Numbered from the stretch's first letter, positions 4,655 to 40,849 are shown. The stretch: 41,098 nucleotides of DNA from a virus (IMGVR_UViG_3300034102_002845); one strand, 5' to 3'. Translations and numbers: made by a program. Notes: generated by a model from the letters alone, not told the origin.

Positions 4655-4719
4655 GGCGGTTTACCGCCCAGCCTTGGCCGGTTTCCCGGCTTGTTTCTGC
4701 TCGTCAGAAACGGTATAAT
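4655..4719 (+). promoter_or_regulatory. Repeated composite promoter (double box)
   Basis: CGGTTTACCG and CGGTTTCCCG boxes; TTGTTT-17bp-TATAAT. Confidence 0.85.
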
Positions 4720-4739
4720 TAGATCATGAAAGCCCATTC

Positions 4740-6224
4740 ATGAAAACCACTCTCTCCCTGTCCCCTCAGCAGCAAGCCGCCAAGGGTTGGGTTCGAACCG
4801 GATCCGGTAACCTCATCGTAAGGTCAGTAGCGGGGTCTGGAAAGACCACCCTGCTGGTGGAAATGCTCCCCGAGACAGAAGGGGAAGTGGCGTTCTGTGC
4901 GTACAACAAGGCAATTTCTGAGGAGATTGCTCAGCGTGTAGCACCTTTGGGGCTGCAGAGCCGAGTGCGGACCGGGACGTGTCACTCGTTCGGCTTCGCT
5001 GCGCTGCGTGCTGCTCATAAAAACATTAAGGTTGACGGGAAGAAACTGGGAAACATTGCGGAGGACACGATAGAAAACTGGGGAATTCGCCGGTTTTGCG
5101 TCGCCACAGCGGCAATGGCAAAGCAACTCGGCTACCAAATTGACCCTGCGTTCAGTTGGGACGCGATGGTAAGCCATTTTTCTCTCGGAGACTTGCTCCC
5201 TGAAGACGTCTCTTACGACGATGCCATTCGTGAAACGGTGAAACTGGTGCGCAAAAGCAACTCCATGCTGGGCAAAGTCGTGGACTTTGACGACATGATT
5301 TATGGACCGCTGGTGAAGAACCTTCCATTTCGTCAGTACGACTGGTGCTTTCTAGACGAGGCGCAAGACGCGAACTTCGTCCGTCGAGCAATGATGAAGA
5401 AAATGCTGAAGCCGACTGGGCGTTTTGTCGCCGTGGGTGACGAACACCAGGCGATCTACGGATTCACCGGGGCTGACCATGCCTCCCTAGAGAACATTGC
5501 AACGGAGTTTCAAGCCACAGAGCTTCCACTCACTGTCACCTACCGGTGCCCCAAGAAGATTGTTTCAAAAGCCCAGGAGTGGGTCAGCCACATTGAGGCA
5601 CACGAAAGTGCTCCAGAGGGAGTTGTGGATAGCACGACCGTCAAAAAAGCCATAGGCAAAGGGGAATTTGGGGCGTCGGACGCCATCCTGTGCCGCACCA
5701 CGAAGCCCCTTATCGAACTTGCCTACAAATTGCTGCGTGAGGGCACAGCGTGCAGAGTTGAAGGGCGGGCCATCGGGGAGGGCCTAATCAAGCTGGCAAA
5801 GCGATGGAAAAAAGTTACCACGGTTGCTCAGCTTGAAGAGAGGCTGGAGCAGTGGGAAGGTGCCGAAATGACCAAAGCCCAGGCGAAGGGCAACAACGAC
5901 CGGTGCTCCACGGTAGAAGACCAGGTGGGGACGCTTCGTGTTCTGATTGAAAACTGCGATCCTGGCGACTCGATTGAGGTTCTTGTGAACAACATTCGAG
6001 AGCTTTTCTCGGACAGCGAAGGAAACCAGAGAAAGGTCCTCACACTGTCTACCATTCACCGGGCCAAGGGGCGAGAGTGGGACCGCGTGTTTGCACTGGA
6101 TATGGACCGCCTGAGCCCGAGCCGCTGGGCGAAGAAGCCGTGGGAGCTTGCTCAGGAAAGCAATCTGTGCTATGTACAGGTTACTCGGGCGAAGAAACAC
6201 CTTACACTGCTTTCATCCGTCTGA
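4740..6224 (+). CDS. UvrD/Rep-like superfamily 1 helicase
   Basis: VAGSGKTT, LDEAQD, VGDEHQAIYGF, TYRCP, TIHRAKGREW and YVQVTRAK motifs. Confidence 0.92.
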   Translation: MKTTLSLSPQQQAAKGWVRTGSGNLIVRSVAGSGKTTLLVEMLPETEGEVAFCAYNKAISEEIAQRVAPLGLQSRVRTGTCHSFGFAALRAAHKNIKVDGKKLGNIAEDTIENWGIRRFCVATAAMAKQLGYQIDPAFSWDAMVSHFSLGDLLPEDVSYDDAIRETVKLVRKSNSMLGKVVDFDDMIYGPLVKNLPFRQYDWCFLDEAQDANFVRRAMMKKMLKPTGRFVAVGDEHQAIYGFTGADHASLENIATEFQATELPLTVTYRCPKKIVSKAQEWVSHIEAHESAPEGVVDSTTVKKAIGKGEFGASDAILCRTTKPLIELAYKLLREGTACRVEGRAIGEGLIKLAKRWKKVTTVAQLEERLEQWEGAEMTKAQAKGNNDRCSTVEDQVGTLRVLIENCDPGDSIEVLVNNIRELFSDSEGNQRKVLTLSTIHRAKGREWDRVFALDMDRLSPSRWAKKPWELAQESNLCYVQVTRAKKHLTLLSSV

Positions 6225-6231
6225 GGTCGTA

Positions 6232-6238
6232 GGGTAAA
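6232..6238 (+). promoter_or_regulatory. GGGTAAA motif (putative late promoter)
   Basis: 30 nt before ATG 6262. Confidence 0.55.
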
Positions 6239-6261
6239 AGTTGGTACTTGACTCTGTACAG

Positions 6262-7419
6262 ATGGGTGGTTACTTCTCAGAAATTGCGCTAGATTCCTAC
6301 AGGAATCTTGTGATTAAACTGCAAGGTGCGGATTTTGCTGAGGGGGAAACCTATGACTTTACACGCTGTGTGAAACCGGACGGTACTGTGTATGGGACGG
6401 CGGGGCAGTGTAGGAAGGGTACGGAAGAGGCCAAGGGTGAAGTCCCACCGAGGGTTCGAGAAATGCGCGTTGGGAAGACGGTTAAGAGCCCTTCCGTCGG
6501 GGACCTGGAAAAGCTTCTAGGTGATCCGAGAGTAAAGCCTCACCAGGCCGCCAAGATTCAGAAGCTAATTGACGAGAAGAAAGGTTCAGAGATACCTCCC
6601 AAGCCAAAGGAACCAACTAAGCCCAAAATCGGAGGTGAGTTGGTAGGTGATACCACTAAGCTAACAGGGGGTTTGCCCAGGAAGAGTATAGAGGAGAAGA
6701 TAAAAGAACTAAATGAGTATAAGAAGAAGCACCCCAAACCTGACGAATACCTAGACTTTGAGCTGGAAAGGCTCAACAAGGAACTAAACAAATTTAAGAC
6801 TAACGAAAAAATCCTAAGCGGTATGGTGGACAACGTTCCGGCGGGAACCAAAGTCTTCGTTTCTTCCCCCTTTGCGAGCATCGTCACTGAAGTCACAACA
6901 AAGTCAGGACATCGTGTGAAGACGGAGTTTGGGCGAAAACACTTCGACTTTAAGGTTAACGGAAAGTATGACGCGGGTACAGTAACGCAGAGAGGGGAGC
7001 AAATTGAAGTGGCAAACACCGTCCGTCGTACGTACGAAGCTCTTGTTAAGTCTCTTCCAGAGGGCGCCGTAGTGACGACGAAAGCTTGGACGGAAGACGG
7101 TAGGGGTCAGAGTAGAATGGACGCTTATGTTAAGATGGGATTTTCCAGACCAAAAACGACGAAGGACGGGGAAGAAATTGATGGACCGCCAGGGATGAAC
7201 CAGTATGCCAAGAAAAGTAACGGGAAAATGGTCCCCTCCACCTCTTCCGAGGCGAGTCTGGATCAAACTTACATGTTTAAAGAAAGCTCTAGAGAGATAT
7301 CCCTTTGGCATACGGTTATTTTTGGGGCAGGGCTTAAGACAAACAAACCCGGATTCTTCGAAGAGTCTCTGAAAGCTACCCCTTATACGACTCATAGGAC
7401 CTTTAACTCCACTACCTGA
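6262..7419 (+). CDS. YDxTRC-module family protein 3, possible GNAT-like C-terminal domain
   Basis: MGGYFSE leader (ATG 6262) and YDFTRCVKPDGTVYGTAGQCRKG. 'RMDAYVKMGF' resembles the C-terminal GNAT motif (tentative). Confidence 0.75.
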   Translation: MGGYFSEIALDSYRNLVIKLQGADFAEGETYDFTRCVKPDGTVYGTAGQCRKGTEEAKGEVPPRVREMRVGKTVKSPSVGDLEKLLGDPRVKPHQAAKIQKLIDEKKGSEIPPKPKEPTKPKIGGELVGDTTKLTGGLPRKSIEEKIKELNEYKKKHPKPDEYLDFELERLNKELNKFKTNEKILSGMVDNVPAGTKVFVSSPFASIVTEVTTKSGHRVKTEFGRKHFDFKVNGKYDAGTVTQRGEQIEVANTVRRTYEALVKSLPEGAVVTTKAWTEDGRGQSRMDAYVKMGFSRPKTTKDGEEIDGPPGMNQYAKKSNGKMVPSTSSEASLDQTYMFKESSREISLWHTVIFGAGLKTNKPGFFEESLKATPYTTHRTFNSTT

Positions 7420-7512
7420 ATGAGCCTTGGCACTTAACCTGGGAGGAGATTCTGAGGGGTGCGTACCAGACTTAGAGAAGGTGGTATAAGCGGGTATAGA
7501 AACAAATTACCC

Positions 7513-7692
7513 CTGCAAGGGTCTTTTTCCGAAACCGTACTTGAGCAGTTTGCTCAGCTTGCAACTCATACTTAGTCTGTAAACTTTACTGAAGGTGGTG
7601 AGTATGTCTTTACACGGCGTGTGAGACCGGACGGTACAGCAGTAAAGTTTTCCTCCAGCAAAGTTTTGGAACCAACGTTTACCGATCGCTAA
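7513..7692 (+). pseudogene. Degenerate fifth copy of the YDxTRC family N-terminus
   Basis: Translates as LQGSFSETVLEQFAQLATHT*SVNFTEGGEYVFTRRVRPDGTAVK. CTG replaces ATG, in-frame TAG at 7573-7575, first Cys lost, truncated. Confidence 0.8.
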
Positions 7693-7847
7693 GCACCCTA
7701 TACTACCTGTGTCGCGGTTGATTCTTTCAACCGCCTTGCCGCTACCGGGACTAGGCAAGTCAATCTGTCTCTCATCCTGCCTCACCTTAGGGTAGTGAGG
7801 GTTTTGTAACAGATCTTTCCCTAAGATCACTTACTTAATCATGCTAA

Positions 7848-9868
7848 ATGGCTAGTTCAGTTTTACAACGTCCTCAGAGTAATCTTTGGGAGCGTTACCT
7901 TAGTTGGGTCACGAGTACCGACAACCGGTTATATATCGGAAATTTCGGTACAATCATGATCCCCACGTTGCTAGCTGCAACTATTTGCTTCATCGTTGCG
8001 TTCGTCGCAGCACCTCCTGTCGATATCGACGGAATTCGTGAGCCAGTTGCTGGTTCGCTTATGTACGGCAACAACATCTAGATGGTGTCACTGCGAAGTG
8101 ATTCGCAGAAGTAAACTGGGTGAATTGCTGGGATACCTTGAGTATTCAAATCCAAAGTTGGGATACTAAGACAATCAGCAGCGAAGCCTTCGGTACACCG
8201 GAGGAACGTTCAGAGACTACCTGAGAAACTACAGTGTTTCTTAATAACAGGCTTTACATCGAAAAGAAGTAAACAGAGCGCCCAGCTCTTTGCAAAAACA
8301 AAGATGAAGATATAGTCCACTTTCTCACAGAGAAAGCATCAGTGGTGCCGTAGTACCAAGTTCTAATGCGATTGGATTGCATTCGTAAAGGAGTGCCTTA
8401 CTGCCGTGAGGCCGTAAGCAAATCGGGTGAATTGACTGGGAACCCTAGTTTTGCTTAGCAAAACGGGCAATCAGCAGCGAAGTCCTAGACGATCTTCTAG
8501 GAAACGTTCATCGACTAGGTGGTTTCCCAAGCGTGGGATGTAATACACCGCTAGCGCCCGACGACTTGTTTACAAGTTGATGATATAGTCAGCTCCGTAA
8601 GGAAACTTACGGGTAGGTGTTCTATCCAATCTGGGAAGCTGCTTCCCTTGATGAGTGGCTCAGCCTGTAGGGCCACCCTAAATCGGGTGAATTGACTGGG
8701 AACCCTAGTTTTGCTTCTGCAAAACGGGCAATCAGCAGCGAAGCCTTCGGTACACCGGAGGAACGTTCAGAGACTACCTGAGAAACTACAGTGTTTCTTA
8801 ATGACAGGCTAGAGCTCCCGACGTTTTGTTTTGCGAAGCAAAACGATAATATAGTCCACGCCGTTAGGGAACTAGCGGACGCCACCCTGCTACAATGGTG
8901 GCCCTTACCAACTTATCGTTTTCCACTTCCTTATTGGCATCTTTTGCTACATGGGGCGTGAGTGGGAACTTTCTTATCGCCTCGGCCAAAGACCCTGGAT
9001 TTGCGTGGCTTACTCTGCCCCCGTAGCAGCGGCAACCGCAATTTTCCTGGCTTACCCCATCAGCCAAGGATCATTCTCTGACGGATTCCCTCTGGGAATC
9101 TCCGGCCAGTTCAATTTCATGTTGGTTTTTTCTGCGGAGCATAACATACTAATGTCTCCCTTCCACATGATTGGAGTTGCCGGTGTGTTCGGAGGTGCTT
9201 TAATCAGTGCCACACATGGCTCTCTTGTAACCTCATCTTTGGTAAGAGAAACCACTGAGAATGAAAGTCAGAACTACGGTTACAAATTTGGGCAAAACCA
9301 AGAAACCTACAATCTGGTGTCCGCTCACGGGTATCTGGGACGCCTCTTGTTCCAATACGCTTCTTTCAACAATAGTCGCTCTCTGCACTTTGTTATGGCA
9401 GCACTCCCTGTGATTGGAATCTGGTTTGCTGCTTGCGGTATCTTTGTCGCAGGATTTAACTTAAATGGTTTCAATTTTAACCAGTCCATTCAAGATAGCC
9501 AGGGTCGTGTGGTTAACACTTGGGCAGATTTGCTTAATAAAGCAAATTTAGGCTTAGAAGTTATGCACGAGCGTGAAACTAGGCATTGCGCTCTTTAAAT
9601 CGGGTGAATTGCTGGAAAGCCCAAGGGCCAATCAGCAGCCAAGCCTTAGACGCTTCTAAGGAAGGTTCAGAGACTACTGGGTGTAACAAGCGTGCTACGT
9701 AAAACCAGATTAGCGCCCGACAAATTGCAAAAGCAATTTGATGATATAGTCCGATCCCGTTGGAAACAGCGGTTACCCTACCGGGTAATGAATGCCCATA
9801 ATTTTCCCCTTGATTTGGCCTCTGTCGCTGCAACGCCAGTTGCTTTGACCGCACCAAGTGTAGGCTAA
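7848..9868 (+). CDS. psbA: Photosystem II D1 protein. Exons 7848-8077, 8337-8382, 8620-8660, 8890-9574, 9791-9868; spliced CDS 1080 nt, 359 aa
   Basis: Joined exons restore YGNNIISGAVVP, GLHFYPIWE, DEWLYNGGPY and [16 protein letters not shown] in frame. Confidence 0.97.
8078..8336 (+). ncRNA. Group I intron 1 of psbA (259 nt, no ORF)
   Basis: Exon ends in U and intron ends in G. P1 (acauc/ggugu, U.G wobble) and P10 (gaug/cauc). Core motifs GAATTGCTGGG, AATCAGCAG, GTTCAGAGACTA, GATATAGTCC. Confidence 0.93.
8383..8619 (+). ncRNA. Group I intron 2 of psbA (237 nt, no ORF)
   Basis: P1 gcau/gugc, terminal G, core motifs AATCAGCAG, GTTCATCGACTA, GATATAGTC. Confidence 0.93.
8661..8889 (+). ncRNA. 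Group I intron 3 of psbA (229 nt, no ORF)
   Basis: P1 guggcu/ggccac, P10 guag/cuac, core motifs present, terminal G. Confidence 0.93.
9575..9790 (+). ncRNA. Group I intron 4 of psbA (216 nt) between codons R334 and N335
   Basis: P1 gagcgu/gcgcuc, P10 ggcauu/aaugcc, core motifs present, terminal G. Confidence 0.94.
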
Positions 9869-9891
9869 TTTTAGCAATCTTTACTGCACTG

Positions 9892-9923
9892 TCCTCTGCG
9901 CTATAACAAGCGTGGAGGATTTT
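9892..9923 (+). terminator. Hairpin plus T-run after psbA; the stem contains the next gene's GGAGG RBS
   Basis: tcctctgcgct-ataaca-agcgtggagga followed by tttt. Confidence 0.7.
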
Positions 9924-9925
9924 CT

Positions 9926-10531
9926 ATGGACAAGTACACTTCTTATATACTACATCTCAAAGAAAAAGAGAAAGCACTTCTAGGTCATGGTATATCATCT
10001 CAAACTCATCGCATTTTACCGGGTCACGCTGGAGGCGAATACAAAGAGGACAACATAGTCGAGTGCTTAGTCAAAGACCACATAAAAGCGCATAGGATTC
10101 GTTGGGAAGTTTACGGAGAGACTAAAGATTTAGCCTCAGTGAATATGATGACAGGAAGGGTTAAAGCAGGAGGGGACTCTGTTATTCCTGTGTTGGGCGC
10201 CTATGCAACCCACGAAGTTTGTAAGAGAAATAAAACCGGTTTTTGGAGTTCAGATCGGCAAAGACTAAACGCCTTAAAGGGAAACACTGAAGAGTGCAGG
10301 AGGAAAAAAAGGGTAGGGGGAGCTAAAGGTAATCAAGTCATCAAAGAAAGAGGAGTAGGAATTTATGCTCCAGGGCAAGCAGCGAAAAGTGGGAGATCCA
10401 GTGGAATCAAACGTAGAGGTTTTCGCATAGAGGGCCTTGGTAAAATTAAGTATTCCTCCGAAGACAGACTAAGTCTTAGCGACACTTTCTTTGACTACTA
10501 CGTCTTTTTTGGAAAACCTGGTGTTAAATAG
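9926..10531 (+). CDS. Free-standing HNH-family homing endonuclease (putative)
   Basis: HRILPGHAGG...DNIV...DHIKAH matches the HNH pattern. Basic Gly-rich C-terminus, AT-rich codons, directly after psbA. Confidence 0.7.
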   Translation: MDKYTSYILHLKEKEKALLGHGISSQTHRILPGHAGGEYKEDNIVECLVKDHIKAHRIRWEVYGETKDLASVNMMTGRVKAGGDSVIPVLGAYATHEVCKRNKTGFWSSDRQRLNALKGNTEECRRKKRVGGAKGNQVIKERGVGIYAPGQAAKSGRSSGIKRRGFRIEGLGKIKYSSEDRLSLSDTFFDYYVFFGKPGVK

Positions 10532-10712
10532 TCACCGGGAGACAGTTCAGTGTAGAAATCACCACGCCACCCTCGGAGAATGCTTCGACCTTGAACAGTC
10601 CCTACTCAAATGGGCTCGCTCCCATGGCTATCGCTATTCCTCGCCAACCACAACCGAACTACTCCACCCTGCTAGCATAGACCACATTCTCAGCGAATTG
10701 CGAAGCAATTGC

Positions 10713-10719
10713 GGGTAAA
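10713..10719 (+). promoter_or_regulatory. GGGTAAA motif (putative late promoter)
   Basis: 29 nt before ATG 10742. Confidence 0.55.
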
Positions 10720-10741
10720 TTACTTAGAGGACGGTATGTAC

Positions 10742-12391
10742 ATGCAAGGCAACTTCTCAAACACGGCTCTTGAACACTACCAAGAAGTGGCGAAAGAAAA
10801 ACTTGTAGATTCCCTTTACGGGTCAAGCTATGATTTCACTCGCTGTGTTCGCCCCAACGGCACGGCCTACGGCACAGCGGGAACTTGCCGAAAGGGTGTA
10901 GAAGCTGCTCTCGAAGCCGAGCCCGCACCCGAAATTACCAAGAAGCCGAGATCCAAAGCACCAAGTAAAGCACTCTTGAAGAGTTTGCCTGTGGAGCTAA
11001 GGGCCAGGGCCGAGAAGTTGGTTGCTGCGTACGAAGAACTGGCCGAGCTAAAGGGACAGAATTTGCCTTCGGGTGAGAACTGGCGCATAGACGAAGCAAA
11101 TAAGAAAGTTGGAAACGCACTCAAGGATGCCTTTGAGATGGCCGACACCATGAGACTAAGGCCCAAAATGGAAGCCATCGAGTGGTTGGGATTTGCCAGC
11201 TCACGCACACAAACTGAGCTAAGGGACACAATTAACAGGAACTCCTACGACCTGAGAACACTGAGGGAGTATAACCCTGAGAAGAAAGACGAGCTGAAAG
11301 CACTCGAAAGAAAGACACTTACGCTTATTGAAAACATAAAAGACCCTGTAACCAAGGCCCAACTTCTCTTCGAGACGAGTAAAGCATCCGGAAAGCTAAA
11401 GGTTAGCAAAGCAGGTAGCCTAACGGACACACTCAGGAAAGGAAACGCTTTCCTTAAGGAGTACGACGAAGGGTTACGATCAACTGTAAGCATCCTTCGC
11501 AAAGCAAACGCTCTTGAAAAGCAACTACGTGAGCTGAGTAAGAAACTTGAGGTCGACCGAGAGCCAGGCTGGATAAAGAAAAAGCTGAGAGTGTCCGGAG
11601 CCATCATGAAGGTCGCACGACACAGGGGAAACGCAGAAGCACGTTTACAGGCCAAAATGCAGGGTATCCGTGAGCAGCTCCTGAAGACTTCCTTGTCTGA
11701 GGAGAAGGTTCAACTGCTTGTCAGCAGAGTGGCCTTAATGCCTCCCAAGGGCTCGATCACGCTCGACCAGGAAACTGTGGCGCAAACACGTAAGCACCTT
11801 GAGGAATTTACGCGTATGTTCAACGGCAGGGGGATGCTTGAGGTTCTCGAAAAGAAAGAGGAGAGGAAGCAGCTTTCACAACTTGTGATAGATCCCGCTC
11901 AGCGTGCTTTTGCTATGGTTAATACCGGCTTCGTAACATCGAACGGTGGAAAACAAACTCTGTTTCAAGAGATCGGTCACATTGTGGAGGGGCAAAGAGA
12001 CTGGCTCCTTAACTACTCTAATCGGTGGAGAGACTCTCGGGCCTTTTCCGTACAAAAAGCGTACGACCACCCAGAGACTCAAAAGCTGGTCGGTGACGGA
12101 AAGACTACGAAAGTTCCCTACACTCTGGAGACGCTCAGTACCACAAGGAAAACAGTTCCCGTTGTAAAACTCAACGAGATGCTCCCACACGTAGGAATGA
12201 ACTACAAACCAGAGGAAATCGCTGTTTTAGACACTTTCTTATCCCCTTACTTAGGAAAGCGATACAAGGATAACTTTACGGAAATTGTGTCCTCCACGCT
12301 AGAGCACTTTGCCGAGCCCCATTTAATGGCTCACTTATACAAGAAGCACCCTGACCTGTTTACCTTAGGAGTTGGTCTCGCCACGGACTAA
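10742..12391 (+). CDS. YDxTRC-module family protein 4, C-terminal zincin-like domain (QEIGH variant)
   Basis: MQGNFS leader, YDFTRCVRPNGTAYGTAGTCRKG, then FQEIGHIVE...PYLGKRY...TEIVS. Confidence 0.78.
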   Translation: MQGNFSNTALEHYQEVAKEKLVDSLYGSSYDFTRCVRPNGTAYGTAGTCRKGVEAALEAEPAPEITKKPRSKAPSKALLKSLPVELRARAEKLVAAYEELAELKGQNLPSGENWRIDEANKKVGNALKDAFEMADTMRLRPKMEAIEWLGFASSRTQTELRDTINRNSYDLRTLREYNPEKKDELKALERKTLTLIENIKDPVTKAQLLFETSKASGKLKVSKAGSLTDTLRKGNAFLKEYDEGLRSTVSILRKANALEKQLRELSKKLEVDREPGWIKKKLRVSGAIMKVARHRGNAEARLQAKMQGIREQLLKTSLSEEKVQLLVSRVALMPPKGSITLDQETVAQTRKHLEEFTRMFNGRGMLEVLEKKEERKQLSQLVIDPAQRAFAMVNTGFVTSNGGKQTLFQEIGHIVEGQRDWLLNYSNRWRDSRAFSVQKAYDHPETQKLVGDGKTTKVPYTLETLSTTRKTVPVVKLNEMLPHVGMNYKPEEIAVLDTFLSPYLGKRYKDNFTEIVSSTLEHFAEPHLMAHLYKKHPDLFTLGVGLATD

Positions 12392-12867
12392 GATGCTGCA
12401 CCGTCGGGGATTGGGTTCATGCCTTCGTGAAACTTTTCTCTTTCCCATTGTTGCAACCCATCTGAGTTTATAGTCAGGTTGTCCCTGCCAACTAGCACCG
12501 ATAGCGCAATTACCAAGTCCGTAAACAAGCAGTCTTTTAGGTTAAGGGTGTGGCCGTACTTGCCGTAGAGACCCCTGGAAACCAGGTAGCTCCACTCCAC
12601 TTTCTCCTCCGGAGTTGTCAACGAAGGTGCTACAACCCCTTTGTTCCAATTTACGGTTACACCCTCGTTGACGATTTGGCTAGGAACGGTAATTGATGCC
12701 ACGCAGAACTCTCTGAGTATTTCCCTAGTAAAATAGCTGCCCGAACGGACCGTAAACTCTGAAAAATAAGGGTAAAAGTAGGCAGCGCCCAAGTCAGAGT
12801 AAATGTCGCAGGTCAAAGTCGTTGCCGAAAACGTCGAGCTCTCAGAGATCGACCCGAGACGACTCAC
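12388..12867 (-). CDS. Hypothetical protein convergent with family protein 4 (true start probably the GTG near 12702)
   Basis: ORF track; the 5' part overlaps the next + strand gene and its motif. Confidence 0.55.
   Translation of the reverse strand: MSRLGSISESSTFSATTLTCDIYSDLGAAYFYPYFSEFTVRSGSYFTREILREFCVASITVPSQIVNEGVTVNWNKGVVAPSLTTPEEKVEWSYLVSRGLYGKYGHTLNLKDCLFTDLVIALSVLVGRDNLTINSDGLQQWEREKFHEGMNPIPDGAAS
12770..12776 (+). promoter_or_regulatory. GGGTAAA motif (putative late promoter)
   Basis: 33 nt before ATG 12803, at the head of the fibre operon. Confidence 0.5.
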
Positions 12868-13039
12868 CTCGGATTGTCACACTGTCACACGAGAAGACGG
12901 TGTTGTAGACGTAGTTAAGTCCACGAAAAGGGTAAGTATATTTGACATTTACCACGACCTTGGAATTCGCATTCGAAATATTGAACTGAGTGGTGGGGTC
13001 TTAAACCCTAAGTACCATAAGTTGGGAGATACCCTTTAA
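12803..13039 (+). CDS. Small hypothetical phage protein
   Basis: ORF track; follows a GGGTAAA motif. Confidence 0.65.
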   Translation: MSQVKVVAENVELSEIDPRRLTSDCHTVTREDGVVDVVKSTKRVSIFDIYHDLGIRIRNIELSGGVLNPKYHKLGDTL

Positions 13040-13045
13040 GCGAAA

Positions 13046-18303: not shown

Positions 18304-18310
18304 CCGGGGA

Positions 18311-18317: not shown

Positions 18318-18345
18318 GTACCCTGTAAGAAGTGCTCAGCCGACC

Positions 18346-20307: not shown

Positions 20308-20351
20308 GGACGGTTTCCCGGCTTGTTTCTGCGGCGCAGAAACGGTATAGT
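20308..20351 (+). promoter_or_regulatory. Repeated composite promoter
   Basis: CGGTTTCCCG; TTGTTT-17-TATAGT; GTTTCTGC-ggc-GCAGAAAC. Confidence 0.85.
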
Positions 20352-21122: not shown

Positions 21123-21550
21123 GCCAACCTTGCATGAAAACATACCAATTTTGGTACGGATCCCCGCACGGTGATGGGTCAGAAGTTTACTACCGGTCCA
21201 ATCCTCAACCGGTGTTCGAGTGCTACTGCGAAGGAATCGACAAAGCAGTGAAACTATTTGAAGCACAAACACAAAAGTCCTTCATGAGGGGGTACAGCAT
21301 AAGTGTGGATTCGGACTTAAGCTTCCCGGAAGTGAACTACTACGATCGCCCGAACTTTGCACCTGTAAAGGGTTTCAGGGGTGTGAGTAGACTACGTTGG
21401 AGGTTAAGCTTTAAGCTATGGTGCGCCTACCGTGAAATTGTACATAGTTGGAGAGCTGGGGCCGGTTTCCCGCCCTTGCTTTATTGGGCAGAAAGCGGTA
21501 TAGTAGAGTCAGTTAACCCACCTTTGGCCAACAGCCATGAACACCTCTAA
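21119..21550 (+). CDS. Hypothetical protein whose 3' end reads through a promoter element
   Basis: ORF track. Confidence 0.55.
   Translation: MSQPCMKTYQFWYGSPHGDGSEVYYRSNPQPVFECYCEGIDKAVKLFEAQTQKSFMRGYSISVDSDLSFPEVNYYDRPNFAPVKGFRGVSRLRWRLSFKLWCAYREIVHSWRAGAGFPPLLYWAESGIVESVNPPLANSHEHL
21461..21504 (+). promoter_or_regulatory. Repeated composite promoter
   Basis: CGGTTTCCCG; TTGCTT-17-TATAGT. Confidence 0.8.
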
Positions 21551-23043: not shown

Positions 23044-23086
23044 GGCGGTTTTCCACCCTTGTTTCTGCTCGGCAGTAACGTATACT
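23043..23086 (+). promoter_or_regulatory. Repeated composite promoter
   Basis: CGGTTTTCC; TTGTTT-16-TATACT. Confidence 0.8.
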
Positions 23087-26309: not shown

Positions 26310-26354
26310 GGACGGTTTCCACCCTTTGTTTCTGCGACGCAGAAACGGTATAAT
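26310..26354 (+). promoter_or_regulatory. Repeated composite promoter
   Basis: TTGTTT-17-TATAAT; GTTTCTGC-gac-GCAGAAAC. Confidence 0.85.
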
Positions 26355-26635: not shown

Positions 26636-26679
26636 GGGCGGTTTCCCCCCTTGTCCCTGCTTAGCAGAAACGATATAGT
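26636..26679 (+). promoter_or_regulatory. Repeated composite promoter
   Basis: TTGTCC-17-TATAGT. Confidence 0.82.
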
Positions 26680-27489: not shown

Positions 27490-27553
27490 GGCGGTTAACC
27501 GCTCGCTCTGGGACGGTTTACCCCTTGTTTCTGCCCCGCAGAAGCGGTATAGT
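27490..27553 (+). promoter_or_regulatory. Repeated composite promoter (double box)
   Basis: Perfect palindrome GCGGTTAACCGC plus CGGTTTACCC; TTGTTT-17-TATAGT. Confidence 0.87.
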
Positions 27554-29233: not shown

Positions 29234-29301
29234 CACCTGGTCCTACCGGTGCCGATCTCCAGCGTCGGTGCCACGCCAGGGATTAGTGGGTCGTGGTCTA
29301 A

Positions 29302-29366
29302 GGGCGGTTTCCCGTTTGCCCTGGGGCGGTTTACCCCTTGTTTCTGCCCCGCAGAAACGGTATAGT
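29302..29366 (+). promoter_or_regulatory. Repeated composite promoter (double box)
   Basis: TTGTTT-17-TATAGT; GTTTCTGC-ccc-GCAGAAAC. Confidence 0.87.
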
Positions 29367-29431
29367 AGTTACAGCGAGTCAGTTCAGCACTGGCTCAATC
29401 GCGATTTCTAACCCGACCCTTTACTCTGAAA

Positions 29432-29650: not shown

Positions 29651-29745
29651 GGCGGCTCCCCCGTCTCACCTTTCCCCGTGAAACACCCTAAAGTAAGTAA
29701 TGTGAACTTGACCATCCACCCCTCCACCCATCCCCATTAAACACC

Positions 29746-30189: not shown

Positions 30190-30199
30190 GTCTTGTGTG

Positions 30200-30265
30200 G
30201 GGCGGTTTCCCGTTTGCCCTAGGACGGTTTACCTCCCTGTTTCTGCAGGGCAGAAACGGTATAAT
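30200..30265 (+). promoter_or_regulatory. Repeated composite promoter (double box)
   Basis: CTGTTT-17-TATAAT; GTTTCTGC-agg-GCAGAAAC. Confidence 0.85.
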
Positions 30266-30289
30266 AAATACAGCGAAACGACCCCGGCA

Positions 30290-30586: not shown

Positions 30587-30626
30587 CACAACCGCTTTAA
30601 CTCGTTAGAGCCCATTTCCAACTACA

Positions 30627-31061: not shown

Positions 31062-31067
31062 ACTAGC

Positions 31068-31271
31068 ATGGAAATCAACCTACCCTACGTTCCCTTCCTA
31101 TCCTCCGTCGTCCCGTTTAAGGGGAGGGTCTATCGCCCCAGGGGGCACTTTATTCAATTGCAAGTTATCGGCCCCATCTGGTGGGCTGGCGGGTACTGCT
31201 CGTCTCCCGAAATTGCTCGTGTAATTAGTGACCGTTTAAACGCCGCTTCCAAATCGACCCATACGTCCTGA
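31068..31271 (+). CDS. Hypothetical protein
   Basis: ORF track. Confidence 0.5.
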   Translation: MEINLPYVPFLSSVVPFKGRVYRPRGHFIQLQVIGPIWWAGGYCSSPEIARVISDRLNAASKSTHTS

Positions 31272-31293
31272 GTCAACCGTACGAAGACCAGTA

Positions 31294-31336
31294 GGGCGGT
31301 TTCCCCCTTGTTTCTGCAGCGCAGAAACGGTATACT
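31294..31336 (+). promoter_or_regulatory. Repeated composite promoter
   Basis: TTGTTT-17-TATACT; GTTTCTGC-agc-GCAGAAAC. Confidence 0.85.
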
Positions 31337-31361
31337 AAGTGAGTTAAAGGGCACCCCCACA

Positions 31362-31718
31362 ATGACAGTCTCTGCTTCCTTGCTACTTTCAATACTATGT
31401 AAAGCCAAGGAGCTTGATGTTCGGGTAGTGTTTGATACCCGTGAGGAGTTCGGACGCTACAACGTAAACTTTTACTTCCCGGATCGCTACACTGTCGATA
31501 AATGCTCCCTGAATCTCTTTAGTGAGAACATAGGGGAGGTAACCTTTGAGCAGGTGGCAGAAAGCCTCCTTTTAAGAGAAGCTTCGCTGAGGCAAATAGA
31601 GCTGGACAGACAAGACAGCGAGAGGAAAGAGCTTCTGGAGCGGTTAAACCTATCCGACAAAGACAAGGAGTTACTTGGGTTGCAATCCTTGCCTGGCCAT
31701 GTGCATCCATGGAACTGA
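31362..31718 (+). CDS. Hypothetical protein
   Basis: ATG 31362 behind the promoter element. Confidence 0.65.
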   Translation: MTVSASLLLSILCKAKELDVRVVFDTREEFGRYNVNFYFPDRYTVDKCSLNLFSENIGEVTFEQVAESLLLREASLRQIELDRQDSERKELLERLNLSDKDKELLGLQSLPGHVHPWN

Positions 31719-31746
31719 CCAGATCGCTCTCTGAATATAGAAAACC

Positions 31747-31926
31747 ATGAGCACCCCCGAGAGCCCCGACACCCTGGCAATTCGTATTGCCATCATTGAC
31801 CGCGACGCCCTGAACGAGGCCGTTGATGGTGCCTTCAGGGCCCTGGCGCTACTCAAATCGCCCGAACCATTGGCGCCGGATCAGCTAGACGGCAGGGGCG
31901 GTTTCCCGCCTTACCCTCGCAGCTAA
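31747..31926 (+). CDS. GC-rich short ORF that terminates inside the next promoter element
   Basis: MSTPESPDTLAIRIAII...GRGGFPPYPRS*. Confidence 0.5.
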   Translation: MSTPESPDTLAIRIAIIDRDALNEAVDGAFRALALLKSPEPLAPDQLDGRGGFPPYPRS

Positions 31927-31939
31927 ACCACGCTATAGT
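31896..31939 (+). promoter_or_regulatory. Repeated composite promoter (variant without spacer palindrome)
   Basis: CGGTTTCCCG; TTACCC-17-TATAGT. Confidence 0.7.
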
Positions 31940-31971
31940 AGTTACGGTGAATCGACCCCATCCTGAATCTT

Positions 31972-32736
31972 GTGAAAAACCTTTTAATCGAAGAAATCAA
32001 GCTCACCATGGTGAAGATCCCGGCGGGCAGCTTTTTGATGGGTTCTCCTGAGAACGAGCCAGAGCGATTCGACGATGAAGGCCCCCAGCACGAGGTGAAG
32101 CTGGGCGCCTTCTTCATGGCCCAGACACCGATCACCCAGGCCCAGTGGCTGGCGGTGGCAGCTTGGCCGAAGCTGGAGCGCGACCTGGAGCCCGATCCTT
32201 CGAATTTCAAGGGTGCAAACCGCCCGGTGGAGCAGGTGAACTGGTTTGATGCGGTTGAGTTCTGCCGCCGGCTGAGCCAGCGCACGGGCCAGCGTTACGG
32301 ACTGCCGAGTGAGGCCCAGTGGGAATATGCCTGTCGCGCAGGCAGCACCACGCCGTTTCATTTCGGGGCCACGCTCACGCCGGATCTGGCCAACTACAAC
32401 GGTAAGTACGTTTATGGAAATGGCCCCAAGGGCACTTATCGCGAGCAGACTGTCGAGGTGGCCAGCTTTCCGGCCAATGGCTGGGGCCTGCACGATATGC
32501 ACGGCAATGTGAGGGAGTGGTGCGAAGACCACTGGCATGACAGTTACAACTTCGCCCCAGGCAATGATCAGCCCTGGTTGATTCCTGCCGCCGCTGATGA
32601 CGAACCAAGGCTGCTGCGCGGCGGGTCGTGGGGCGGCAGCCCCGCGGCCTGCCGCTCGGCCTGCCGCAACCTCAGCCTCCCGGTCGACCGCTTCAGCCGC
32701 ATCGGTTTCCGCGTCTGTTGCCTCCCCCAGGACTAA
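31972..32736 (+). CDS. FGE-sulfatase (SUMF1/CLec-fold) domain protein with DGR-like variable C-terminus
   Basis: IPAGSFLMGS, LPSEAQWEYACRAG, NGWGLHDMHGNVREWC and RGGSW...GFRV motifs. Confidence 0.92.
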   Translation: MKNLLIEEIKLTMVKIPAGSFLMGSPENEPERFDDEGPQHEVKLGAFFMAQTPITQAQWLAVAAWPKLERDLEPDPSNFKGANRPVEQVNWFDAVEFCRRLSQRTGQRYGLPSEAQWEYACRAGSTTPFHFGATLTPDLANYNGKYVYGNGPKGTYREQTVEVASFPANGWGLHDMHGNVREWCEDHWHDSYNFAPGNDQPWLIPAAADDEPRLLRGGSWGGSPAACRSACRNLSLPVDRFSRIGFRVCCLPQD

Positions 32737-32794
32737 TTCTTTAGCCTTTATCTCTTTATTTCTTTACATTTTAGCTGTTGGCTGTGTGACGTTG

Positions 32795-32857
32795 GGCGGC
32801 TTTCCGCCCCCTGTGAACCGGTCCCCCCTTGTTTCTGCTCGGCAGAAACGGTATACT
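32795..32857 (+). promoter_or_regulatory. Repeated composite promoter (double box)
   Basis: TTGTTT-17-TATACT; GTTTCTGC-tcg-GCAGAAAC. Confidence 0.85.
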
Positions 32858-33782: not shown

Positions 33783-33846
33783 CCGGATAACCGTTTGCTT
33801 AAGGGCGGTTTCCCGGCTTGGTTTCTCGAAGGAAAACCGGTATAGT
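33783..33846 (+). promoter_or_regulatory. Repeated composite promoter (double box)
   Basis: CGGATAACCG plus CGGTTTCCCG; TTGGTT-17-TATAGT. Confidence 0.85.
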
Positions 33847-34437: not shown

Positions 34438-34450
34438 CAATCCTTGCAAA

Positions 34451-34490
34451 TTTCTCTTCGAGAAAACAAGCCGGGAAACCGCCCCAGAGC
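34451..34490 (-). promoter_or_regulatory. Inverted, -10-less copy of the composite promoter
   Basis: Reverse complement reads gctctggggcggtttcccggcttgttttctcgaagagaaa and then diverges. Confidence 0.75.
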
Positions 34491-35459: not shown

Positions 35460-35525
35460 GGCGGATAACCGCCCCCGAAGTAGACGGTTTACACCCTTGC
35501 TCTCTCGAAGAGAAAACGCTAAAGT
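35460..35525 (+). promoter_or_regulatory. Repeated composite promoter (double box)
   Basis: TTGCTC-17-TAAAGT; TCTC-gaa-GAGA. Confidence 0.8.
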
Positions 35526-35569: not shown

Positions 35570-36043
35570 ATGACTAACCTTTCAAAAGTTTCCGTGGGCG
35601 ACGAACTATTCGTTGTTTGGGGGCATTCTTGGAGTGTAGAAAGTAAGACTATAACTCAAACAGCGAAAGTTATGAAAATTGATAAGAGGTATGTCTACCT
35701 GAAAATAGTTAGTTTCACAGCACCTCCACAAAAGTTTAAATTTGATGGAAGAAGCTTTCACCAAAAGAAGTATCCGTATGAACACGAGACAGGTTTTGGT
35801 TTATATGCTTATCTTAGCAGGGAGGACTGGGAAAAAGAACAGGCCGACAACGAGGCAGCACGCGAGTACCTTAAGTTGACCCTGGGCTGTGATCCTTGCA
35901 GGGTGGTTGAACTTCCGATCAGCGTGGTTAAGGAGATTAACGCAATTGTAACCAAGATACCTAGACCCCTGGCCCCACCCCCTAAGCCTAGTTCAGGGGT
36001 ATGCTTTTGGGACAACCATGAGAAGCGCTACATTACGGGGTAG
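35570..36043 (+). CDS. Hypothetical protein
   Basis: ORF behind promoter element. Confidence 0.7.
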   Translation: MTNLSKVSVGDELFVVWGHSWSVESKTITQTAKVMKIDKRYVYLKIVSFTAPPQKFKFDGRSFHQKKYPYEHETGFGLYAYLSREDWEKEQADNEAAREYLKLTLGCDPCRVVELPISVVKEINAIVTKIPRPLAPPPKPSSGVCFWDNHEKRYITG

Positions 36044-36934: not shown

Positions 36935-36999
36935 GGCGGATAACCGCTTGCTCTGGGACGGTTTACCGGCTAGTTTCTGCGTCGAAGAAACGTTATAGT
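36935..36999 (+). promoter_or_regulatory. Repeated composite promoter (double box)
   Basis: CGGATAACCG plus CGGTTTACCG; TAGTTT-17-TATAGT. Confidence 0.83.
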
Positions 37000-37317: not shown

Positions 37318-37382
37318 GACGGATAACCGCCCCCGAAGTGGACGGTTTGCACCCTTGTTTCACTCAGGCAAAACGGTATAGT
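37318..37382 (+). promoter_or_regulatory. Repeated composite promoter (double box)
   Basis: TTGTTT-16-TATAGT. Confidence 0.82.
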
Positions 37383-38410: not shown

Positions 38411-38453
38411 GGGCGGTTTCCCGCTTGTCTTTCCCTGAGAAAGGCGCTATACT
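38411..38453 (+). promoter_or_regulatory. Repeated composite promoter
   Basis: CGGTTTCCCG; TTGTCT-17-TATACT. Confidence 0.82.
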
Positions 38454-39296: not shown

Positions 39297-40214
39297 ATGA
39301 GCCTAGTCGAAGACATTCTCAAGCTGAAAGAGCAACGCAATGCCGTAATCCTGGCCCACTACTACCAGGTTCCTGAAATTCAAGAAATTGCGGACTTTGT
39401 TGGAGACTCGCTTGAGCTCGCTCGCCAAGCTGCGGGAACCAACGCAGACGCGATTGTTTTCTGCGGAGTTCACTTCATGGCCGAGACAGCCAAAATCCTA
39501 AATCCGTTAAAAACCGTTTTACTCCCAGACATTAACGCCGGTTGCAGCCTGGCCGATGCATGTTTGCCAGATGACTTTGCAAAGTTTCGTGTGAAACACC
39601 CGGACCACTACGTAATTAGCTACATAAACTGCTCAGCAGCAATCAAGGCTCAGAGCGACCTGATCTGCACCAGCAGCAATGCCGTGCGCCTTGTTGAACA
39701 GGTCCCGAAAGACCGACCTATTTTGTTCGCACCGGACAAAAACTTGGGTCGATGGGTCGCTGAGCAGACTGGTCGAGAGCTAACGCTCTGGAACGGAAGT
39801 TGCCAAGTCCATGAAGCTTTCAGCGAAGAGGCTCTCATGGAGCTTTGGGTGGAACACCCCGAGAGCGAGGTTATTGCCCACCCTGAGTGCGAAGAGGCTC
39901 TGTTAAATCTGGCGGATTTCGTGGGTTCCACGAGTGCTTTGCTCCGCAGAGTGCAGGAAAGTACGTCTGATTCCTTCATCGTCCTAACGGAACCAGGAAT
40001 CATTCACAAAATGAAGCAGGTTGCGCCGAGCAAGGTGTTTCTGCAGGTTCCTGGACGAGACGGTTGTAGCTGCAACGACTGCCCCTGGATGAAATTAAGT
40101 ACCCTGGAAAAAGTGCGGAATTGTCTGCGGGACTTGACGCCCGAGATTAACCTCGAAGAAGGACTGAGACTGAAAGCTTTGCAACCCCTTGAGAGAATGC
40201 TTTCTCTTTCTTAG
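39297..40214 (+). CDS. nadA: Quinolinate synthase A
   Basis: [37 protein letters not shown] and the three Fe-S cysteines. Confidence 0.96.
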
Positions 40215-40244
40215 TACCTCGGCCTGAAGCCAATGCGGCGAGCG

Positions 40245-40288
40245 GGGCGGTTTCCCGCCTTCCTCCCTCCGCTAAAACAAGCTATAAT
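40245..40288 (+). promoter_or_regulatory. Repeated composite promoter (variant without spacer palindrome)
   Basis: CGGTTTCCCG; TTCCTC-17-TATAAT. Confidence 0.72.
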
Positions 40289-40312
40289 ACATGCAGCGAC
40301 CCAAACAAGCCC

Positions 40313-40477
40313 ATGTCTCACGCCCAGGAGCTTCAGGCAATCTTTCAGATCCACTCAATTCCAGAGCAGGCTCAGAAAGAGCTGCGCAAACTGTTCAGAA
40401 AGAGCAACGAACACGCTCGTTCAGAGGGCTGGAGTGAGGGCCACGAAGACGGTTTTTACGAAGCTACCGACGAGTGA
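40313..40477 (+). CDS. 54-aa hypothetical protein (MSHAQELQAIF...)
   Basis: Manual translation; behind the promoter element; paralog of 34505-34705. Confidence 0.6.
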   Translation: MSHAQELQAIFQIHSIPEQAQKELRKLFRKSNEHARSEGWSEGHEDGFYEATDE

Positions 40478-40538
40478 TTCCCTGAACTTTTCTCTTTAAG
40501 GGGGAGTCTCGCCCGTCTAGCACCTCTGAAAACCAACC

Positions 40539-40793
40539 ATGGGAACAATTGACAAGCTAATCAACCTGGTGCGAAGGACGGAGAATTACGTCCCACGACT
40601 CTCCTCTGCCGACTCCTATGAAAAAGAAGGTGTTTCGGTTCTTGTGGAGGACGCAGGGTATTCCATTACCCTTCGAAGCATGATTGGTGACTTACATGTT
40701 ATTGACGGGTACGGTCCGGGTGGAAGATTCATTGAGTGGCTGGAGGGTGACGAAACTGTTGCTCAAAAGTGGCTGGAGAAGCTAGGAGGTTAA
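40539..40793 (+). CDS. Hypothetical protein
   Basis: ORF track; stop codon lies inside the next element's distal box. Confidence 0.65.
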   Translation: MGTIDKLINLVRRTENYVPRLSSADSYEKEGVSVLVEDAGYSITLRSMIGDLHVIDGYGPGGRFIEWLEGDETVAQKWLEKLGG

Positions 40794-40849
40794 CCGCCCC
40801 GACTAGGACGGTTTCCCGCCTTGTTTTTCCTCTGGAAAAACGGTATAGT
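40785..40849 (+). promoter_or_regulatory. Repeated composite promoter (double box)
   Basis: TTGTTT-17-TATAGT; GTTTTTCC-tct-GGAAAAAC. Confidence 0.85.

Follow-up and report, generated by a model that had tools for sequence, protein, structure and literature searches.

The closest described counterparts of the repeats analysed here are the PeSL (promoter-early stem-loop) cassettes of the T4-type phages RB49/phi1, T4/PST and KVP40/nt-1 (Arbiol et al. 2010, PMC2839356; Comeau et al. 2014, PMC4122927). In these cassettes a stem-loop is most commonly located in the spacer that separates the -35 from the -10, and it acted as a terminator when assayed with a reporter (PMC2839356; PMC4122927); such stem-loops are frequently built from a poly-G and a following poly-C tract, and may sit upstream of the -35 (PMC2839356). 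The window, a stretch of 41,098 nucleotides from a virus (IMGVR_UViG_3300034102_002845), carries many copies of an element that resembles the PeSL cassettes, with the addition of two precisely spaced boxes.

A family of promoter cassettes in the window and in a near-complete relative

An earlier note on this DNA had listed 19 forward copies of a composite promoter by the start of the -35, and the described element was found on the + strand at each of these positions; coordinates and count are accurate. Its account of the geometry was borne out as well, in that the spacer is 17 bp long in 17 of the 19 copies and 16 bp in two (23059 and 37355), the -10 is TATAGT, TATAAT or TATACT with TAAAGT once among the listed 19 (35497), and ten copies possess a second, upstream CGG-N4-CCG box 22 (occasionally 23) bp from the proximal box. 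In these ten copies (-35 at 4691, 27525, 29338, 30237, 32829, 33818, 35497, 36971, 37355 and 40821) the distal box starts 32–35 nt before the -35. The observation that nearly every copy precedes a small gene also holds, with an ORF of at least 40 codons within 65 nt downstream in 18/19 copies. A 52-nt weight matrix built from the 19 sites recovered 19/19 when the window was scanned, together with one degenerate copy on the + strand and one partial copy on the - strand. The elements are as follows:

4657..4719, + strand: cassette with distal and proximal box, palindromic spacer, TATAAT; -35 at 4691
20309..20351, + strand: cassette with proximal box, 8-bp palindrome, TATAGT; -35 at 20323
21463..21504, + strand: cassette with palindrome arms GCTTT/AAAGC, a compensated variant; -35 at 21476 (TTGCTT)
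23046..23086, + strand: cassette with 16-bp spacer; -35 at 23059
26313..26354, + strand: cassette; -35 at 26326
26639..26679, + strand: cassette; -35 at 26651
27492..27553, + strand: cassette with distal box CGGTTAACCG; -35 at 27525
29305..29366, + strand: cassette with distal box; -35 at 29338
29652..29694, + strand: degenerate extra member, TAAAGT, weight matrix score 16 bits; T1 at 29666
30203..30265, + strand: cassette with distal box; -35 at 30237 (CTGTTT)
31297..31336, + strand: cassette; -35 at 31308
31899..31939, + strand: cassette without spacer palindrome; -35 at 31911
32797..32857, + strand: cassette with distal box variant; -35 at 32829
33784..33846, + strand: cassette with distal box CGGATAACCG, arm class TTTCTC/GAAAA; -35 at 33818
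34441..34487, - strand: partial inverted copy with box, -35 and palindrome, without -10; T1 at 34469
35462..35525, + strand: cassette with distal box, TAAAGT; -35 at 35497
36937..36999, + strand: cassette with distal box; -35 at 36971 (TAGTTT)
37320..37382, + strand: cassette with distal box, 16-bp spacer; -35 at 37355
38414..38453, + strand: cassette with arm class CTTTC/GAAAG; -35 at 38425
40248..40288, + strand: cassette without palindrome; -35 at 40260 (TTCCTC)
40787..40849, + strand: cassette with distal box; -35 at 40821

The degenerate copy at 29666 was absent from the earlier list and has an ortholog at 13376 in G002, a 98%-complete 277-kb relative that is collinear with the window. 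The core of the cassette comprises a -35-like TTGYYT, a 17-bp spacer and a TATAGT-type -10, and is co-oriented with the genes. Because TTGTTT is identical to TTGACA at only 3/6 positions, a generic sigma-70 scan detects just two members of the family. The fixed-register pattern CGGTTTMCC-N3-TTGTTT-N17-TATAVT, with up to three mismatches allowed, gave 8 matches in the window versus 0.01 expected from 100 dinucleotide shuffles, and the composite element occurs 91 times in G002 and never in a shuffle of that genome, which argues that the family did not arise by chance. At the level of sequence, the 19 repeats are confirmed as genuine copies of one stereotyped promoter cassette.

In G002 the strand of the cassettes tracks the gene blocks, and their orientation is always that of the genes. 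The region from 170 to 252 kb, a replication and structural block that makes up about a third of the genome and encodes DNA polymerase, topoisomerase, sheath, portal, protease, baseplate, terminase and tape measure, contains no copy at all. The earlier claim of a large regulon is thereby well supported, by 91 co-oriented copies, a tight distance to start codons and exclusion from this block. The note had also proposed a motif search across whole phage and host genomes; this found the family genome-wide in G002 and no regulon with this double box in 401 cyanobacterial genomes. The element is restricted to this phage lineage.

The cassettes carry mostly one to four small ORFan genes. No Pfam match was obtained for 16 of the 20 window proteins scanned, including 15 of the 17 ORFs directly after a family promoter; genes downstream of family promoters include a helicase gene (4740-6224, -35 at 4691), an FGE-sulfatase-like gene (31972-32736, -35 at 31911) and a ProQ-C-like gene (35570-36043), the last of which is missing from both relatives, G001 and G002, together with its element at 35497. 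Between relatives, breaks in synteny often appear to coincide with the elements. The 63-codon cassette at 26370-26625, which follows the promoter at 26326 and is missing in G001, runs exactly from promoter to promoter, and the gene behind the 27525 promoter is replaced in G001 and G002 from T1+57 on. Element-associated borders lie at 27582 and 31886, at the joint of 31305 to 32824 (the cassette at 31308) and at the joint of 29301 to 31896, and the contigs of relatives break at the partial minus-strand copy; such contig joints may include assembly artefacts, part of them possibly mis-assemblies across repeats. There are also indels at a distance from the elements, and of the indel borders between the window and G001/G002 about a quarter at most come within 60 nt of one. 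Two contig joints that go back (31951 to 29739 and 32872 to 26306) could hint at mini-circles excised through recombination at the elements, a feature of PeSL cassettes, and equally at rearranged relatives. The RNA-library data consist of assembled contigs, in which ends are not visible and DNA is possibly included.

The explanation that we consider probable, taken as a whole, is that the repeats form one family of intergenic promoter cassettes of about 75–100 bp each, that the phage is an uncultured jumbo cyanomyovirus from lake water, with a genome of about 277 kb and about 90 copies per complete genome, and that these would be PeSL-like early cassettes combined with boxes as protein contact sites and a hand-over to phage sigma factors.

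The CGG-N4-CCG boxes

Each cassette contains one or two CGG-N4-CCG boxes at about -47..-38 and -69..-60, relative to an inferred transcription start. Of 39 exact proximal boxes, 30 start 12 nt ahead of the -35, and of 34 exact distal boxes, 25 start 34 nt ahead of it; the box-to-box distance is 22 bp in 15 of 17. An exact distal box is present in 34 of 80 sites, which is under half, and is lost where the upstream ORF extends into it. The geometry is kept in G003 and in a third lineage (-35 of TTTACY, different spacer), with just the CGGTT half of the proximal box retained in G003. Where a divergent promoter pair has no co-directional upstream gene, both boxes are still present, and free-standing boxes distant from promoters are essentially absent. 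Box covariation, tested as within-site versus cross-site complementarity, was not detected (z = -2.1, 0.6, 0.4 and -1.0). The boxes are conserved as sequence and not as pairing, and are position-locked in three diverged lineages.

The earlier view of the phased boxes as recognition sites stands in part: it is supported by the lack of compensatory variation, the locked distances of 12 nt, 34 nt and 22 bp and their retention in three lineages. The putative cooperative dimeric factor that would bind them is plausible. The note had further described the box as unlike NtcA, CRP-family or RpaB HLR1 sites, and direct reading of the aligned boxes agrees, the invariant letters being CGG..CCG or CGGTT. 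NtcA recognises GTA-N8-TAC and CRP TGTGA-N6-TCACA, and the RpaB HLR1 site is a direct repeat of (G/T)TTACA.

It is possible, and we would put it no higher, that, as in a strict version of the earlier note's model, the boxes are operators of a dedicated dimeric factor, either phage-encoded or a hijacked host protein, that binds cooperatively two turns apart and switches the regulon on or off. Palindromic boxes (CGGTT/AACCG) with a variable A/T centre and no compensatory variation would suit such a factor, as would the strict 22-bp spacing and fixed distance from the -35 in three lineages, the poor -35, and box centres near -42.5 and -64.5, which we take to be close to classical activator positions. 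A dimer with two operators is, however, difficult to reconcile with the scarcity of exact distal boxes and their loss to intruding ORFs, with a proximal box reduced to one half in G003 and with the cyanobacterial genomes that have no double-box regulon, and there is no separate immediate-early class from which a phage activator could be expressed first. In the preferred explanation the boxes would instead be contacted, along one face of the DNA, by a protein present at infection; candidates are RNA polymerase, a phage protein that arrives with the virion and a protein of the host, and the putative partner would compensate for the poor -35. A narrower form of this, which we advance tentatively, makes the boxes the docking site of a new infection-time protein (virion-delivered or host) that recruits host RNA polymerase to about 90 promoters with a weak -35; if true, it would mean cyanophage-specific promoter activation combined with a gating or insulating spacer structure and widespread leaderless early mRNAs.

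A purely PeSL-type role, in which the boxes are GC-rich stem-loops that terminate transcription from the upstream cassette with the T-rich -35 as U-tract, seems unlikely. It would fit the poly-G/poly-C make-up of known stem-loops and their possible location upstream of the -35 (PMC2839356), a GGCGG/CCGCC pairing with TTGTTT behind it is possible in about half of the proximal boxes of G002, and the whole element folds better than shuffles (mean z about -1.8 to -2.3). The helix of the proximal box nevertheless lacks its two inner pairs in about half of the sites, compensatory cases number only 4, box complementarity is no better within sites than across sites, and the hairpin is impossible for the G003 proximal box. 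Boxes are also retained at divergent promoters with nothing to terminate and are essentially absent away from promoters, and hardly any of them were called in a generic terminator scan (only 21457 and the copy on the minus strand). An intrinsic terminator has a GC-rich stem of five or more pairs, kept by compensatory change and with a U-tract behind it; by that standard the boxes were rejected, given the broken inner pairs and the lack of a within-site pairing excess.

Spacer palindrome, start codons and sigma factors

The spacer between the -35 and -10 holds a palindrome with arms of 5–8 bp and a centre of 3–4 nt. It covaries, with 74.5% of cells paired and pair types such as UA 38 / CG 27 or GC 30 / CG 16 / UA 9; the top mutual-information pairs are Watson-Crick pairs within the spacer in two lineages, and complementarity of the arms is higher within sites than across sites (z = 6.8 and 5.1). 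At least 8 arm classes occur; their centre is at position 12, counted through the -35 and the spacer, with occasional shifts (10.5-13), and the cassette at 40821 has fully compensated 8-bp arms (GTTTTTCC/GGAAAAAC). A perfect stem of at least 5 bp is missing at about half of the sites, no T-run follows the stem-loop, and a generic terminator scan showed no excess (19 found versus 22.9 expected). The spacer stem-loop is the only part of the cassette with structural covariation, and neither it nor the PeSL cassettes had a place in the earlier note's interpretation.

We think it quite unlikely that this palindrome acts at the DNA level, as a repressor operator (possibly for several paralogues corresponding to the arm classes, in early shut-off) or as a supercoil-extruded, N4-like hairpin. 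A 19-bp dyad with a variable 3-bp centre, fixed in a position overlapping the core promoter, and the discrete, recurrent arm classes would be compatible with such a device, and the GAA-type loops closed by C-G presumably resemble known stable DNA mini-hairpins, which we regard as a lead only. The number of arm classes and the centre shifts, on the other hand, suit structure better than a fixed operator, the centre lies near -24 as opposed to near -12 in N4, and a gene for a giant virion RNA polymerase was not seen among the ORFs of G002, the largest of which (1590 and 1207 aa) match tail-fibre families.

In G002, 15 of 80 sites have an ATG at offset 6 from the end of the -10, as do 22 of 28 in G003; offsets 7-21 are nearly empty, and a second peak occurs at 22-26 (about 23). 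Start codons at exactly 6 nt or at 22-26 nt point to the 7th base after the -10 as the probable transcription start, and with a start at that base the codons at offset 6 imply many leaderless mRNAs. In the window, the ATG exactly 6 nt after the -10 of the 40821 cassette suggests a leaderless mRNA, and a GTG lies 6 nt past the -10 of the cassette at 37355.

Two phage sigma-70-family proteins are encoded, both of SigF/FliA/ECF type and one of them behind a family promoter. A GGGTAAA motif is distributed in a manner complementary to the cassettes, within the replication/structural region, with 43 occurrences on the + strand versus 5 on the - strand. A sigma-70 scan of G002 found no promoter with at least 11 of 12 consensus positions and no other consensus promoter class. 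Early timing of the cassette family is inferred from the coverage of the structural block by GGGTAAA, the sigma gene behind a family promoter and this lack of another consensus class. Assignment of the cassettes to a middle class read by a phage sigma factor in place of the host primary sigma, with box plus TTG as an extended upstream recognition element, would agree with the two encoded sigma factors, the atypical -35 and the confinement of the element to this lineage, yet is very unlikely given the TATAAT-like -10 of primary-sigma type (SigF/FliA/ECF-type factors normally use other -10 motifs), a sigma gene that itself lies behind a family promoter, the lack of any other promoter class to start the cascade, and GGGTAAA as the better candidate target of the phage factors.

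According to the preferred explanation, host RNA polymerase with a primary-type sigma factor would read the cassettes from the start of infection, and the family promoter in front of the phage sigma gene would lead to activation of the GGGTAAA class in the replication/structural block. By analogy with PeSL, the spacer stem-loop may attenuate read-through from the upstream cassette and may supply homology for cassette exchange. The result is a sequence-level map of the probable transcription organisation of an uncultured jumbo freshwater cyanophage, in which roughly 90 early cassettes, nearly identical to one another, would serve about two thirds of the genome before phage sigma factors and a second class of promoters take over. 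The exactly phased boxes, the covarying spacer stem-loop and the fixed start site with leaderless genes are testable parts of this picture, and portable promoters for picocyanobacteria and annotation of related metagenomic phages are possible uses.

Comparison with described systems

Mycobacteriophage stoperators and start-associated sequences are likewise dozens of short conserved motifs oriented with transcription. In the temperate phages that carry them, they serve singly as asymmetric sites for a repressor or mark translation starts, whereas the elements described here are complete predicted promoters with phased boxes, and no repressor or lysogeny module was seen. The early promoters of phage N4 are DNA hairpins recognised by a virion RNA polymerase and, like the cassettes, have a small hairpin with a loop of 3 nt within the early promoter, but the hairpin here lies between the hexamers, and an N4-type hairpin promoter was rejected after inspection of the largest ORFs and sigma-domain searches in G002. 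Activator-dependent promoters (CRP/FNR/NtcA class I/II and phage Mu Mor/C, the sites of the latter centred near -43.5) have in common with the cassettes a poor -35 and dyad-like boxes on one helical face; the box sequence, however, fits none of those consensus sites, and nothing here suggests a prior promoter class able to make a phage activator.

The PeSL cassettes differ from the present family in several respects. The cassettes described here belong to a cyanomyovirus of lake water that encodes sigma factors of its own and is at most a putative T4-type phage; the -35 is weak; fixed and phased GC-rich boxes take the place of the AT-rich stretch upstream of the PeSL -35; the stem is mixed AT/GC and strictly spacer-centred; and many genes are apparently leaderless, in contrast to the Shine-Dalgarno sequence that precedes PeSL genes. 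Common to both are a conserved intergenic element of about 100 bp in many copies before small ORFan genes of variable regions; some of the indels and replacements between close relatives also fall at the elements. The many co-oriented -35/N17/-10 promoters (16–17 bp spacers) lie among small ORFans and are absent from the structural core, and the covarying palindrome places a stem-loop between the -35 and -10. The idea of promoters as insulators and recombination linkers that shuffle ORFans would, on this comparison, extend beyond enterobacterial and vibrio T4-type phages.

Promoter family in the window and in related phages

On the evidence of its sequence, the source of the window is a phage of cyanobacteria. 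Its genes encode endolysins, a UvrD/Dda-type helicase, a tail-fibre protein, a glycosyltransferase and photosystem II D1, and its matches to known cyanophages at the DNA level are confined to pieces of psbA. DNA of the window type is present in many lake-water metagenomes. The relative G002, an IMG/VR contig of 277,244 bp with an estimated completeness of 98%, is collinear with the window (window 1–14122 with G002 264796–277244, and window 17193–40875 with G002 1252–23846), and likewise a 26.7-kb fragment, G001. The closest cultured relative, with a helicase identity of 50% and a GC content of 34.8%, is Synechococcus phage B23, a 244-kb myovirus of the Synechococcus-Cyanobium complex (B23 genome paper). 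The B23 genome contained 0 element matches at up to 3 mismatches, no stereotyped TTG-N20-TAnnnT family was found in 50 kb of its small genes, and the B23 genome paper makes no mention of such an element. Two further features of the window were observed. The psbA gene lies in pieces at 7848–9868, with four group I introns by Rfam (8034–8336, 8373–8612, 8635–8878 and 9525–9773), and is followed by an HNH/homing-endonuclease-like ORF at 9926–10531. The tail-fibre gene (13046–15400) contains many internal repeats, and there are many registers in which its stretch at 13.5–14.5 kb aligns with the ends of G001 and G002 (collagen-like repeats).

Members of the promoter family comprise one or two CGG-N4-CCG boxes, a TTGTTT-like −35, a palindromic spacer and a TATAGT-type −10; the proximal box adjoins the −35, the distal box lies further upstream, and sites are named by the start of the −35 (T1). 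An earlier note had described 19 such promoters in the window. All 19 bear the element on the + strand, and the details held as well: the spacer is 17 bp long, except for 16 bp at 23059 and 37355, and 10 copies carry a distal box as well, 22 bp (sometimes 23) upstream of the proximal one. A 52-nt weight matrix recovered 19/19 of these sites and two extra copies:

T1 29666, + strand: degenerate copy
T1 34469, − strand: partial inverted copy without a −10

A fixed-register pattern gave 8 matches in the window versus 0.01 expected. Rfam returned no known RNA family at the elements, and a generic promoter/terminator scan was uninformative for the family, picking up only 2 copies as promoters because the −35 matches TTGACA at half of its positions.

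The large regulon that the note had proposed far exceeds the copies in the window, since the same matrix identified 91 sites in G002 versus 0 in a shuffled genome. Their strand tracks the gene blocks, being + from 268 kb through the contig end to 44 kb, − at 50–143.5 kb and + at 143.9–170.5 kb. Apart from an isolated copy at 252,169, the matrix scan found no copies at 170–265 kb of G002, and this block encodes topoisomerase, DNA polymerase, tail sheath, portal, protease, baseplate, terminase, tape measure and ribonucleotide reductase. The element was found in about 25 further lake viral contigs. Per-position conservation between orthologous promoters of the window and G002 was confounded by 1-nt indels and was left out.

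Spacer palindrome and CGG-N4-CCG boxes

The −35 hexamer and the spacer together form a palindrome, the commonest class of which is GTTTCTGC-N3-GCAGAAAC. Across 79 aligned G002 sites 74.5% of cells are paired, with clear double changes in the spacer, among them UA 38 / CG 27, GC 30 / CG 16 / UA 9, and UA 32 / CG 12. An unbiased mutual-information scan returned Watson-Crick pairs of the spacer as the top pairs in both G002 and a second related contig, G003, and the spacer arms pair clearly better within a site than across sites (z = 6.8 and 5.1). There are at least 8 arm classes, the palindrome centre is nearly always at position 12, and a perfect stem of at least 5 bp occurs in about half of the sites, some sites having no stem at all. 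The spacer helix exhibited no wobble asymmetry that would distinguish RNA from DNA, a 5′ T being paired with G in 30 cases and with C in 29. Judged by the covariation, structural constraint in the element falls on the spacer stem-loop.

The pairing tests gave the opposite result for the boxes, which by alignment are conserved in sequence and position. Their within-site complementarity is no greater than that across sites for either box (z = −2.1, 0.6, 0.4 and −1.0), and the inner two pairs of a putative 5-bp proximal helix fail to form at about half of the sites, with compensation in 4 cases. In 30/39 exact boxes the proximal CGG-N4-CCG (or CGGTTTMCC) begins 12 nt upstream of the −35; for the start of the distal box the distance is 34 nt in 25/34, and the two are spaced by 22 bp in 15/17. 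The box geometry is kept in G003, where the proximal box is TTCGGTTCNCMCCC. In a third, more divergent lineage (e.g. the contig G004) both boxes are nearly unchanged, with a −35 of TTTACY and a different spacer; this lineage was retrieved through a box search and its box conservation is partly a product of retrieval, a bias of which the G003 result is free. Both boxes are also kept in a divergent promoter pair that has no co-directional upstream gene, and there are practically no free-standing boxes away from promoters.

Predicted transcription start, proposed expression programme and candidate binders

Of 80 strong G002 sites, 77 have an ORF of at least 40 codons downstream. The offset of the ATG after the −10 is bimodal, being exactly 6 at 15/80 G002 sites and at 22/28 sites of G003 (47% GC), with ATG almost missing at offsets 7–21 and a second peak at 22–26. 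The usual start position is the seventh base after the −10, which is where an ATG at offset 6 lies, and the earlier prediction of a +1 some 6–7 nt after the −10 is supported by these ATGs. Since such an ATG falls exactly at the predicted +1, the offsets imply that many family mRNAs are leaderless and that the remainder carry leaders of about 17 nt. In the window, ATG/GTG-type starts at offset 6 are found at 40856 and 37389. Most cassettes of G003 (L191–L201) and G004 (L270–L275) have their start codon at an offset of exactly 6, which suggests leaderless early mRNAs as the rule in these lineages. Where the distal box is absent, the upstream ORF often extends into that space; elsewhere the upstream genes stop just before the distal box, or within it via the TAA of CGGTTAACCG, so that the element occupies the entire intergenic gap. 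The metatranscriptome relatives (4 runs) are assembled contigs, possibly including DNA, in which transcript 5′ and 3′ ends, strand and expression level are not visible; of these only the joints were used, with caution, and the few contig ends near predicted starts (35537, 23107) were given no weight.

G002 encodes two sigma-70-family proteins that are SigF/FliA/ECF-like:

L068:1435–2037, G002 ~252.2 kb: sigma-70-family protein, 200 aa
L069:1318–2046, G002 ~258.7 kb: sigma-70-family protein, 242 aa

The gene for the 200-aa protein comes directly after the isolated family promoter at 252,169, an arrangement also present in G003. A second motif, GGGTAAA(A/G), occurs at 170–277 kb of G002 (loci L062–L067) 43 times on the + strand versus 5 on the −, often with the start codon of a replication or structural gene about 25–35 nt downstream. 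The motif and the promoter family have complementary distributions, and positions 1–19000 of the window correspond to the end of this G002 region. GGGTAAA may be the target of the phage SigF/FliA-like sigma factors. In the simplest programme, host polymerase would read the family promoters first, and a phage sigma factor expressed from one family member would then read the GGGTAAA class. No large polymerase-like ORF was seen in G002, nor a separate sigma-70 promoter class at 11/12 or more consensus matches.

The cooperative dimeric factor proposed for the boxes is a reasonable if hypothetical partner. An early phage activator would itself have to be expressed from a prior promoter class, of which none was seen. 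Scans of the phage genome and of host genomes, both envisaged earlier, differed in outcome: the former extended the family to the 91 sites of G002, and the latter yielded no regulon with the double box among 401 cyanobacterial genomes, in 14 of which it occurs once or twice, similar to a backward control. The host result speaks against a hijacked host factor whose own genome carries the same architecture. In 596 Gb of prokaryote genomes the double-box pattern gave scattered single matches in unrelated taxa, as chance predicts. A 136-bp-period tandem array with CGGTTTACCG...TTACGGGTTCCC in an Oscillatoria MAG (G007:C476:7275–7713) was rejected as a family member, being a tandem repeat unrelated to the phage element and matched by the box pattern alone. 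The remaining candidates would be RNA polymerase itself, a protein delivered in the virion or a host protein using single sites; a later-acting repressor at the boxes is possible.

Possible cassette shuffling and comparison with PeSL elements

Shuffling at the elements is partly supported by the relatives. The cassette at 26370–26625, flanked by an element on either side, is lacking in G001, downstream of promoter 27525 the relatives have a different gene from T1+57 onward, the stretch 31700–31886 ends 25 nt before a −35, and element 35497 with its gene is missing from G001 and G002. All large joints in the relatives' contigs lie at elements (29301→31896, 31305→32824, 31951→29739 and 32872→26306), as do many loose contig ends. 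Other indels lie elsewhere, and a contig joint that spans repeats can be an artefact. Among the proteins encoded in the cassettes are a complete quinolinate synthetase (NadA, E = 1e-118) at 39297–40214 and a phage ProQ C-terminal-like protein at 35570–36043. Between two cassettes lies an FGE-sulfatase-like gene (C-type-lectin fold, 31972–32736), for which relatives' contigs contain several short replaced stretches at 32336–32700, a pattern to be expected of a hypervariable C-terminal region.

In T4-type phages, promoter-early stem-loop (PeSL) cassettes are conserved stretches of about 100 bp that lie between genes, ahead of ORFans in hyperplastic regions; a lacZ assay showed termination of transcription by their stem-loop, and indels and mini-circles are explained by recombination from one PeSL to another (PMC2839356, PMC4122927). 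Common to both families are a repeated promoter, a stem-loop in the spacer, ORFan cargo and exclusion from the structural core. Unlike PeSLs, the present family has a weak −35 (3/6 positions of TTGACA), no T-run after the stem and many apparently leaderless genes, and it carries GC-rich phased boxes where PeSLs have an AT-rich region. By these features the element fits best among the PeSLs, as a variant, and its phased boxes as a new sequence-specific module whose partner is only hypothetical.
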